Below are positions 9,866 to 13,076 of a stretch of DNA of 64,000 nt, in pieces (the stretch's first letter is position 1; each line of letters starts with the position of its first letter). Made by a program: the position numbers and the translations under genes. The stretch is from Escherichia coli (GTDB lineage Bacteria > Pseudomonadota > Gammaproteobacteria > Enterobacterales > Enterobacteriaceae): assembly GCF_003334315.1 (NCBI RefSeq), contig NZ_QOWR01000013.1; one strand, written 5' to 3'. A model generated the notes under the pieces. The model had not been told where the DNA came from, did not search any database, and worked only from the letters and a program-made list of their open reading frames with translations.

Positions 9866-11230
9866 TTGATTACACATATTAGCCCGCTTGGCTCCATGGA
9901 TATGTTGTCGCAGCTGGAAGTGGATATGCTTAAACGCACCGCCAGCAGCGACCTCTATCAACTGTTTCGCAACTGTTCACTTGCCGTACTGAACTCCGGT
10001 AGTTTGACCGATAACAGCAAAGAATTGCTGTCTCGTTTTGAAAATTTCGATATTAACGTCTTGCGCCGTGAACGCGGCGTAAAGCTGGAACTGATTAATC
10101 CCCCGGAAGAGGCTTTTGTCGATGGGCGAATTATTCGCGCTTTGCAGGCCAACTTGTTCGCGGTCCTGCGTGACATTCTCTTCGTTTACGGGCAAATCCA
10201 TAACACCGTTCGTTTTCCCAACCTGAATCTCGACAACTCCGTCCACATCACTAACCTGGTCTTTTCCATCTTGCGTAACGCTCGCGCGCTGCATGTGGGT
10301 GAAGCGCCAAATATGGTGGTCTGCTGGGGCGGTCACTCAATTAACGAAAACGAGTATTTGTATGCCCGTCGCGTCGGAAACCAGCTGGGCCTGCGTGAGC
10401 TGAATATCTGCACCGGCTGTGGTCCGGGAGCGATGGAAGCGCCGATGAAAGGTGCTGCGGTCGGACACGCGCAGCAGCGTTACAAAGACAGTCGTTTTAT
10501 TGGTATGACAGAGCCGTCGATTATCGCTGCTGAACCGCCTAACCCGCTGGTCAACGAATTGATCATCATGCCAGATATCGAAAAACGTCTGGAAGCGTTT
10601 GTCCGTATCGCTCACGGTATCATTATCTTCCCTGGCGGTGTGGGTACGGCAGAAGAGTTGCTCTATTTGCTGGGAATTTTAATGAACCCGGCCAACAAAG
10701 ATCAGGTTTTACCATTGATCCTCACCGGCCCGAAAGAGAGCGCCGACTACTTCCGCGTACTGGACGAGTTTGTCGTGCATACGCTGGGTGAAAACGCGCG
10801 CCGCCATTACCGCATCATCATTGATGACGCCGCTGAAGTCGCTCGTCAGATGAAAAAATCGATGCCGCTGGTGAAAGAAAATCGCCGTGATACAGGCGAT
10901 GCCTACAGCTTTAACTGGTCAATGCGCATTGCGCCAGATTTGCAAATGCCGTTTGAGCCGTCTCACGAGAATATGGCTAATCTGAAGCTTTACCCGGATC
11001 AACCTGTTGAAGTGCTGGCTGCCGACCTACGCCGTGCGTTCTCCGGTATTGTGGCGGGTAACGTAAAAGAAGTCGGTATTCGCGCCATTGAAGAGTTTGG
11101 TCCTTACAAAATCAACGGCGATAAAGAGATTATGCGTCGTATGGACGACCTGCTACAGGGTTTTGTTGCCCAGCATCGTATGAAGTTGCCAGGCTCAGCC
11201 TACATCCCTTGCTACGAAATCTGCACGTAA
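9866..11230 (+). CDS. ppnN: Nucleotide 5'-monophosphate nucleosidase PpnN (YgdH, LOG family), 454 aa
   Basis: ORF begins with TTG ([14 protein letters not shown]) preceded by AAGGAG RBS; recognised from memory. Confidence 0.9.
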
Positions 11231-11786
11231 TCTCCGCTCCCCCGGTGACGTTTGTTGCCGGGTTTTCTCGTTTTTGGTCACTTACTCATCAACTCATTTC
11301 ATTTGTTATATGAATGTTTCTTACCACCCTCACGCGACAAATATCATCACAGTTAATATGTCATACAATTTATGTTGCAACGCAAACGTTTCCCTATTTT
11401 CATAAACCGTATTTTATCGCTATGAAAAAGAAATTATCGCCATGATTAACTAAAAGTATTGATTTTTTCAGTTCAACCTACATATATTGCGCGCCCCGGA
11501 AGAAGTCAGATGTCGTTTAATGGGCAAATATTGCCCTTAAATTCTCTTTTACTTTTGATTTACAGAGTAAAGCGTTGGGATAATCTATCTTCCAAGTAGA
11601 TTATTGTATTTGAGATCAAGATCACTGATAGATACATAACTTGTGTGTATCTTTCCGCCCTCAAATTATTACGGCGGTAAATGATTAAGCCATCGCCGAT
11701 AGACAGATTTCATTTTTACGGTCAGGCACCTTCCCGGGCTGAACTGGCTAAAAGCTGAATTATTTGCATTCCTCCAGGAGAAATAG

Positions 11787-13076
11787 ATGGAAACGACTCA
11801 AACCAGCACGATTGCGTCGAAAGACTCTCGTAGTGCCTGGCGCAAGACAGACACCATGTGGATGTTGGGCCTTTACGGCACGGCAATCGGCGCGGGCGTG
11901 CTGTTCCTGCCAATCAACGCCGGTGTTGGCGGTATGATCCCGCTGATCATCATGGCTATCCTTGCGTTCCCGATGACATTTTTTGCACACCGCGGCCTGA
12001 CTCGCTTCGTACTGTCTGGTAAAAACCCGGGCGAAGACATCACCGAGGTTGTAGAAGAACACTTTGGTATTGGCGCAGGTAAACTGATTACCCTGCTCTA
12101 TTTCTTCGCTATCTACCCGATCCTGCTGGTTTATAGCGTAGCAATCACCAATACAGTTGAAAGCTTCATGTCTCACCAGCTGGGTATGACACCACCGCCG
12201 CGTGCGATTCTGTCGCTGATCCTGATCGTGGGTATGATGACCATCGTTCGCTTCGGTGAGCAGATGATCGTTAAAGCGATGAGTATTCTGGTATTCCCGT
12301 TTGTTGGCGTACTGATGCTGCTGGCTCTGTACCTGATCCCGCAGTGGAACGGCGCAGCACTGGAAACGCTGTCTCTGGACACTGCATCTGCAACCGGGAA
12401 CGGTCTGTGGATGACCCTGTGGCTGGCAATTCCGGTAATGGTGTTCTCGTTCAACCACTCTCCGATCATCTCTTCTTTCGCCGTTGCGAAGCGTGAAGAG
12501 TACGGCGATATGGCAGAACAGAAATGCTCGAAGATCCTTGCATTCGCACACATCATGATGGTGCTGACCGTAATGTTCTTCGTCTTCAGCTGCGTACTGA
12601 GCCTGACTCCGGCAGACCTGGCTGCGGCTAAAGAGCAGAACATCTCGATTCTGTCTTACCTGGCTAACCACTTTAACGCACCGGTTATCGCGTGGATGGC
12701 TCCGATTATCGCGATTATCGCTATCACCAAATCCTTCCTCGGCCACTACCTGGGCGCACGTGAAGGCTTCAACGGTATGGTGATTAAATCTCTGCGTGGT
12801 AAAGGTAAGTCTATCGAAATCAACAAGCTGAACCGTATCACTGCGCTGTTCATGCTGGTAACGACCTGGATTGTTGCCACCCTGAACCCGAGCATCCTGG
12901 GTATGATTGAAACCCTGGGCGGCCCAATCATCGCGATGATCCTGTTCCTGATGCCGATGTACGCAATTCAGAAAGTACCGGCAATGCGTAAGTACAGCGG
13001 TCACATCAGCAACGTATTCGTTGTCGTGATGGGTCTGATTGCAATCTCCGCAATCTTCTACTCTCTGTTCAGCTAA
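11787..13076 (+). CDS. sdaC: Serine:H+ symporter SdaC (HAAAP family), 429 aa
   Basis: [42 protein letters not shown]; multi-helix membrane protein; GGAG RBS. Confidence 0.95.

Follow-up and report, generated by a model that had tools for sequence, protein, structure and literature searches.

What does the long DNA between ppnN and sdaC in Escherichia coli do? An earlier note on this region described it as long and AT-rich, drew attention to two dyads and a 29-codon ORF, and proposed complex control through multiple regulator sites or a leader peptide. The spacer is indeed 556 bp long (ppnN ends at position 11230 and sdaC starts at 11787), and it has a G+C content of 37.9%, or roughly 38%, versus 51.7% for the whole window. 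All positions given here refer to the window, i.e. the entire 64,000-nucleotide stretch of DNA that was analyzed, unless MG1655 coordinates are stated.

We conclude that the spacer is probably a region of transcriptional and post-transcriptional control for sdaCB (serine uptake and deamination) that receives multiple inputs, and that the ORF within it is a chance reading frame. Control by multiple inputs is already published and is not new. YieP, CRP, Lrp, a distal promoter and the sRNA ArcZ are all in the literature, in agreement with the complex control and multiple regulator sites that had been proposed.

The spacer and its conservation

The local gene order is queF, ppnN (9866-11230), sdaC (11787-13076), sdaB and xni. 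Positions 11200-11800 match E. coli K-12 MG1655 base for base (100% identity), and MG1655 coordinates are obtained by adding 2,916,442 to those of the window. The spacer occurs, with an identity of at least 95%, in every one of the 5426 complete E. coli genomes. RefSeq has no annotation inside it.

The same DNA is the published sdaCB promoter of K-12 (Shao, Lin and Newman 1994; Freddolino lab 2021; Frendorf, Heyde and Norholm 2024). The accessible papers on sdaCB contain no division of this DNA into a distal promoter and a proximal class II CRP promoter, no PurR-type box and no mini-ORF. We suggest two modest refinements. One is a proximal CRP promoter that would be distinct from the distal promoter, and the other is a PurR-type box that, if real, links serine catabolism to purines. 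Neither alters the general picture of bacterial gene control.

Our proposed order of elements, from 5′ to 3′, starts with the ppnN terminator, followed by two YieP sites, a predicted PurR operator and a predicted distal promoter (P1). These would be followed by a conserved block containing a CRP site, a putative proximal promoter (P2) and the ribosome-binding site, where ArcZ pairs. The features, together with the mini-ORF and the dyads, are as follows.

11241..11275, plus strand: intrinsic terminator of ppnN, consisting of a 9-bp G+C-rich hairpin (11241-11262) and then a T tract; from a terminator scan
11301..11315, plus strand: YieP site 1, ATTTGTTATATGAAT; sequence from Freddolino et al. 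2021, located in the window
11356..11370, plus strand: YieP site 2, ATATGTCATACAATT, at the in vivo occupancy peak; sequence from Freddolino et al. 2021, located in the window
11380..11395, plus strand: predicted PurR-type (LacI-family) operator, ACGCAAACGTTTCCCT; from a consensus match and conservation
11459..11488, plus strand: predicted distal sigma-70 promoter P1; from a consensus scan (9/12) and sdaC-activating insertions
11510..11599, plus strand: mini-ORF of 29 codons (ATG at 11510, TAG at 11597-11599) with the peptide MSFNGQILPLNSLLLLIYRVKRWDNLSSK; judged to be a chance ORF in the P1 leader
11580..11604, no strand: dyad 1, ATAATCTA-N9-TAGATTAT, with arms at 11580-11587 and 11597-11604 that are complementary at 8/8 positions
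11608..11629, no strand: CRP site with the core TGAGATCAAGATCACT (11611-11626) and its center at 11618.5; from ChIP-seq and conservation
11626..11641, no strand: weaker, second CRP-like sequence, TGATAGATACATAACT, which shares bases with the left arm of dyad 2; from ETEC ChIP-seq
11627..11655, no strand: dyad 2, AGATACA/TGTATCT, with arms at 11630-11636 and 11646-11652 (7/7)
11648..11660, plus strand: predicted class II CRP-dependent promoter P2, with a -10-like TATCTT (11648-53) and a predicted start at about 11660; from geometry and conservation
11771..11786, plus strand: ribosome-binding region of sdaC, with CCTCC, then GGAG, then the ATG at 11787

The ppnN terminator is the sole terminator-like site in a scan of positions 11100-11900, and its RNA folds at -14.9 kcal/mol (z = -3.8). 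Published Term-seq data place a 3′ end at MG1655 2927709 (window 11267), which fits the hairpin at 11241-62. The same data list no 3′ end between 11267 and the sdaC start, i.e. in the sdaC leader. Two further 3′ ends lie downstream. One is 121 nt into sdaC (window 11908, MG1655 2928350), and the other falls in the gap between sdaC and sdaB, 25 nt upstream of the latter (window 13109, MG1655 2929551). These two ends suggest partial termination or processing inside the operon.

To compare the spacer among species, we collected 80 sdaC loci, one genome per species, with ppnN-sdaC synteny in 76. The counts below refer to 77 Enterobacteriaceae ppnN-sdaC spacers, while column conservation refers to 53 non-redundant Enterobacteriaceae sequences. 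Directly after ppnN (about 11260-11375), the spacer is poorly conserved and variable in length. From about 11380 to sdaC, its length is constant and its conservation is better. Identity reaches its maximum of 0.8 over 11596-11690 and is 0.37-0.53 in the region of the ORF (77 spacers). In the 53 sequences, the bases of the CRP half-sites (TTTG.GATC...TCACTG) are invariant, TGTATCTTTCCG is invariant or nearly so, and the TTCCTCCAGGAGA motif in the ribosome-binding region is conserved.

This last region is the target of an sRNA. According to papers that cite Papenfort 2009, ArcZ pairs with positions -13 to -2 of sdaC (window 11774-11785) and thereby represses the gene. Pairing at the ribosome-binding site would repress translation.

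CRP site and two predicted promoters

The literature describes induction of sdaC by cAMP and cites the gene as regulated by CRP. The sequence that CRP ChIP-seq in ETEC lists for sdaC, AGTGATCTTGATCTCA, corresponds in reverse complement to window positions 11611-11626. The core matches TGTGA-N6-TCACA at 8/10 core positions. Such a match is, by itself, at chance level, given that the window contains 25 CRP consensus matches versus 25.3 expected. Binding of CRP here has been established by others. The ETEC table also lists AGTTATGTATCTATCA at sdaC, the reverse complement of 11626-41, which is the weaker CRP-like sequence.

A -10-like hexamer starts 29.5 nt from the center of the CRP site in 77/77 genomes (TATCTT in 69, TACATT in 5 and TATCGT in 3). 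This spacing would put CRP at -41.5 and the transcription start near 11660, which is the geometry of a class II promoter. The predicted +1 nucleotide in K-12 is a pyrimidine. On the basis of this geometry and its conservation, we infer a proximal CRP-dependent promoter, P2, that is separate from the distal promoter hit by insertions (see below).

In class II CRP promoters such as galP1, CRP is centered at -41.5 and replaces the -35 element. The sdaC region resembles these promoters in having a site bound by CRP in vivo, a conserved spacing to the -10 and no good -35. It differs from them in that the -10 sequence TATCTT is only a 4/6 match, a second CRP-like sequence abuts the first, and the start is a prediction only.

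The predicted distal promoter P1 has a -35 TTGATT (11459-64), an 18-nt spacer, a -10 TATATT (11483-88) and a G+C-rich discriminator, and transcription would start at about 11495. Insertions that increase sdaC expression and lead to growth on serine were obtained in cya mutants, first by Heyde and colleagues and then by Frendorf and colleagues, and the -10 box of this promoter is a hotspot for them. The insertions that they describe, with effects on reporters, are +A at MG1655 2927924 and +ATT at 2927928. These map to window positions 11482 and 11486, respectively, inside the -10 TATATT of P1. The case for P1 comes mainly from this genetic evidence, because promoter-like hexamer pairs occur in the region at chance frequency (2 versus 1.8 in shuffles, no excess). 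We did not adopt other promoter-like hexamers, e.g. TTGATT-18-GATAAT at 11555-11584, given this chance frequency. The supplements of Kim 2012 contain no transcription start at spacer coordinates.

Of the 77 spacers, only those of Escherichia and Salmonella contain a match comparable to P1, while the geometry of the CRP site and -10 is kept in 77/77. It is this difference that leads us to a reading with two promoters. P2 would be the ancestral, cAMP-CRP-dependent promoter throughout Enterobacteriaceae, with a 5′ UTR of about 127 nt. P1 would be an additional promoter in Escherichia and Salmonella only, with a leader of about 290 nt. The insertions in its -10 would strengthen P1, such that it takes over when CRP is inactive, as in cells without cAMP.

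One strain has lost much of this arrangement. In E. coli 23AR0151, IS903B is inserted in the sdaC regulatory region (L085:2838-3900, from window position ~11566 on). The insertion cost this strain the CRP site, the proximal promoter and the N-terminal part of sdaC, and the gene has been annotated as a pseudogene. Since both the N-terminus and regulatory elements are gone, this clinical isolate has lost SdaC.

Dyads, leader RNA and the 29-codon ORF

Both dyads that the earlier note had placed at 11581-11608 and 11627-11650 are real, although their coordinates were off by 1-3 bases. Dyad 2 extends to 10 nt per arm at 90% complementarity (11627-36 and 11646-55). The spacer has 2 perfect 8-bp inverted repeats with loops of 3-20 nt, versus 0.22 expected from dinucleotide shuffles (P ~0.05), and 5 7-bp inverted repeats, some of them overlapping, versus 0.89 expected (P ~0.015). 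Since both counts exceed those of the shuffles, dyads are mildly enriched.

This enrichment could reflect an operator. One or both dyads might bind a dimeric factor that is new to sdaC, for example a repressor that covers the -35/-10 region of P2 at dyad 2. In most genera, dyad 2 takes the form GATACAT-N11-ATGTATC, in which the arms are nearly invariant and the 11-nt spacer varies freely, a pattern that fits the site of a dimeric regulator. Dyad 2 also covers the position where RNA polymerase would sit at P2. Moreover, the authors of the IPOD-HR study (Freddolino et al. 2021) inferred that, while sdaC is off, further factors occupy DNA downstream of the YieP sites.

However, the left arm of dyad 2 coincides with sequence that flanks the CRP site on its 3′ side and with the second CRP-like sequence, and its right arm coincides with the -10-like TATCTT. 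In K-12 and many genera, the conserved register of dyad 2 contains a G-G mismatch (GATAGAT) without compensation, and no known protein is a candidate for binding such an operator. Dyad 1 also overlaps other sequences: its left arm overlaps the -10-like GATAAT, and its right arm lies in the conserved GTGGATTATTGCATTTG block directly upstream of the CRP site. The left arm is weakly conserved, with 3 to 8 of the 9 pairs retained outside K-12. An A at position 11582, as in K-12 and some other E. coli, makes dyad 1 perfect, while EcPF7 and three other Escherichia lineages have a T.

An operator for an additional regulator at dyad 2 is the main rival to our interpretation, and we regard it as rather unlikely. 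The dyads are better explained as overlaps with other elements, and regulators dedicated to binding them, or RNA switches, are less likely. Dyad 2 would be the flank of the CRP site juxtaposed with the -10 region of P2. Dyad 1 would be a conserved block of a protein-binding type, beside the CRP site, that is paired with a poorly conserved upstream arm. Thus explained, the dyads need no new mechanism.

The dyads could also act as RNA. The long leader might be a structured cis-regulatory RNA, either similar to a riboswitch or serving as a platform for a protein or sRNA, with the dyads as its hairpins. The distance from the aligned P1 position to the sdaC ATG is nearly constant across genera (288-317 nt). 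Individual hairpins are more stable than shuffled sequences: dyad 2 folds at -9.9 kcal/mol (z = -4.2), and a GGGCAA/UUGCCC hairpin has z = -2.4. Additionally, the inner pairs of dyad 1 are TCTA/TAGA in E. coli and CCAC/GTGG in many genera.

By contrast, taken whole, neither leader exceeds shuffled sequences in stability (z = -1.2 for that of P1, +0.4 for that of P2), and RNAalifold on the 53 sequences yielded no consensus structure (-0.57 kcal/mol, 3 pairs). A scan of Rfam families with E-values up to 10 yielded no family in the spacer, and its only hit was a chance snoRNA fragment inside sdaC. We also tried explicit helices, namely dyad 1, dyad 2 and a CCGCC/GGCGG hairpin, and found that their pairing registers differ between genera. 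Because of these differing registers, and because the arms of dyad 2 do not vary, covariation is uninformative. The best-conserved bases coincide with sites that function in DNA (the CRP site and the -10), and most genera lack P1, without which the dyads would not be transcribed. A structured regulatory RNA is thus very unlikely, and we retain the explanation that the dyads are overlapping elements.

A separate pairing region lies at 11655-11698, where TTACGG(CGG) can pair on its upstream side with CCGCC (11655-59) or on its downstream side with CGCCG or CCGTAA (11692-98). Its partners vary by genus (CGCCCG/CGGGCG or TTACGG/CCGTAA), and the pairing registers are inconsistent across the alignment. 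This region could be a 5′-proximal hairpin of the proximal transcript.

The remaining question in the leader is that of the mini-ORF. The 29-codon ORF noted earlier at about 11510-11599 is present in the sequence, nested in a 46-codon ORF with a TTG start (11459-11599). If it were a leader peptide, then, for example, ribosome pausing at its Ser-Ser pair in the loop of dyad 1 could control sdaC via attenuation or remodeling of the leader RNA. Several properties are compatible with this idea. The ORF starts approximately 15 nt downstream of the predicted P1 start and has a weak GGAAG sequence resembling a Shine-Dalgarno. It ends with TCT TCC AAG TAG, codons that fall within the loop and right arm of dyad 1; this dyad could form a hairpin of -8.3 kcal/mol, and a U-rich stretch comes after it. 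Among the K-12-like E. coli that we examined, the frame is uninterrupted. In the trpL, hisL, thrL and ilvL attenuators, too, a long leader carries a short ORF close to its 5′ end, and a hairpin covers the stop codon of the ORF.

Unlike these attenuators, however, the sdaC leader lacks a run of cognate codons, an intrinsic terminator and covarying alternative hairpins, and its ORF is not conserved. Only 4/29 codons encode serine (positions 2, 12, 27 and 28), among them one adjacent pair. Neither a terminator-like site nor a Term-seq 3′ end occurs in the leader. The stem of dyad 1 is perfect only with the A at 11582, where EcPF7 and other Escherichia lineages have T. If P2 exists, CRP-dependent transcripts begin downstream of the ORF, which would be transcribed from P1 only.

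Conservation, which the earlier note had itself suggested as a check, also argues against a leader peptide. The ATG is kept in 25/77 Enterobacteriaceae, and beyond Escherichia a stop ends the homologous frame after 13 codons. Substitutions in the region show no codon periodicity, in that variability is not concentrated at third positions. Premature stops occur within Escherichia: a TGA at codon 3 in the Escherichia locus L004 and Q6* in E. coli 23AR0151 (L085). The other changes within Escherichia, including those in EcPF7, are only non-synonymous. The length of the ORF is that expected by chance, since the spacer contains 3 ATG-initiated ORFs of at least 29 codons versus 2.3 in dinucleotide shuffles (P = 0.41). 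Gene callers have called the peptide once among ~15 billion predicted proteins, and no NCBIfam family matches it.

The frame is not conserved and is rarely called, and the leader lacks a serine run, a terminator and alternative hairpins. For these reasons, we reject the leader peptide that had been proposed, which is extremely improbable. We judge the mini-ORF to be a chance reading frame without a conserved product, although transcripts from P1 may permit translation at a low level. It should stay off lists of small proteins and leader peptides.

A strongly conserved 25-nt block, (A/G)TGnTAGCCTTCGCGCCC(A/G)TAAAT, aligns to window positions 11513-11543 in Citrobacter, Enterobacter, Klebsiella, Salmonella, Kluyvera and other genera. 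It is at L012:2206-2260 and at the same place in most non-Escherichia loci. Escherichia has the palindrome GGGCAAATATTGCCC instead. The block is non-coding. A 13-codon ORF in non-Escherichia genera, MSLMVAFAPVNSL, was rejected as a coding sequence, given that TAGCCTTCGCGCCCnTAAAT is conserved with or without a start codon and that variability is not at third positions. A sigma-54 promoter was also rejected for the block TAGCCTTCGCGCCCnTAAAT, whose GG is not conserved. As a guess, the 25-nt block could provide a sigma-32-type -10 (CCCnTAAAT).

YieP sites and a predicted PurR operator

The spacer has been studied by Freddolino et al. (2021) using IPOD-HR. Their "sdaC promoter" is the whole spacer (MG1655 2927672-2928228). 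They observed an occupancy peak at sdaC that is specific to rich medium and is lost in minimal medium, and they identified YieP by pull-down. Two sites at which YieP acts as an activator were established by gel shift, agreement with ChIP-exo and effects on lacZ reporters. The same study reports an Lrp site approximately 200 bp downstream from this peak in occupancy.

Only 10 bp downstream of YieP site 2, and approximately 407 nt upstream of sdaC, we found a box that resembles PurR operators. Our search used the consensus ACGCAAACGTTTGCGT, a 16-bp palindrome with a central CG, which we checked on MG1655. There, it recovered sites upstream of purR, cvpA-purF, purEK, purC, purMN, glyA, purL and purHD with 1-3 mismatches, as well as one extra match inside hda that does not have the central motif. 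In the 64-kb window, the sdaC box (14/16 consensus positions) is the sole match with at most 3 mismatches.

The box is found in 49/77 spacers, with at most 3 mismatches in 33, and lies at a fixed distance of 386-410 nt from the sdaC ATG. Shuffled spacers contain it in only 1.5/77. Like established PurR operators (purR O1 and that of glyA, ACGCAAACGATTACCT), it consists of 16 bp that form an imperfect palindrome around a central CG, in this case with 2 mismatches. In many Citrobacter, Enterobacter and Lelliottia genomes, the box upstream of sdaC is identical to the E. coli glyA operator. Unlike the operators of the purine regulon, the box does not lie over a promoter, but rather approximately 70 bp upstream of the P1 -35.

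We tentatively propose that the distal half of the spacer could be an unrecognized purine-responsive module around this predicted PurR operator. An occupancy peak that is present in rich medium, which contains purines, and lost in minimal medium is compatible with PurR, but the authors of that study assigned the peak to YieP. In the part of the searchable literature that was covered, we found no link between PurR and sdaC, no binding and no purine-dependent regulation. If PurR does bind, the uptake and degradation of serine would be coupled to purine and one-carbon status, in parallel to the control of glyA by PurR, and a part of the rich-medium peak attributed to YieP would be due to PurR.

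Between the PurR-type box and P1, the spacer contains its second perfect 8-bp dyad, TTTTCATA-N16-TATGAAAA (11397-11428). The direct repeats TTATCGCTATGA and TTATCGCCATGA, spaced by 20 bp (11414-11445), overlap this dyad. Dyad and repeats are about 50-100 bp upstream of the predicted distal start (~11495), and the surrounding ACCGT..TTTATC is moderately conserved.
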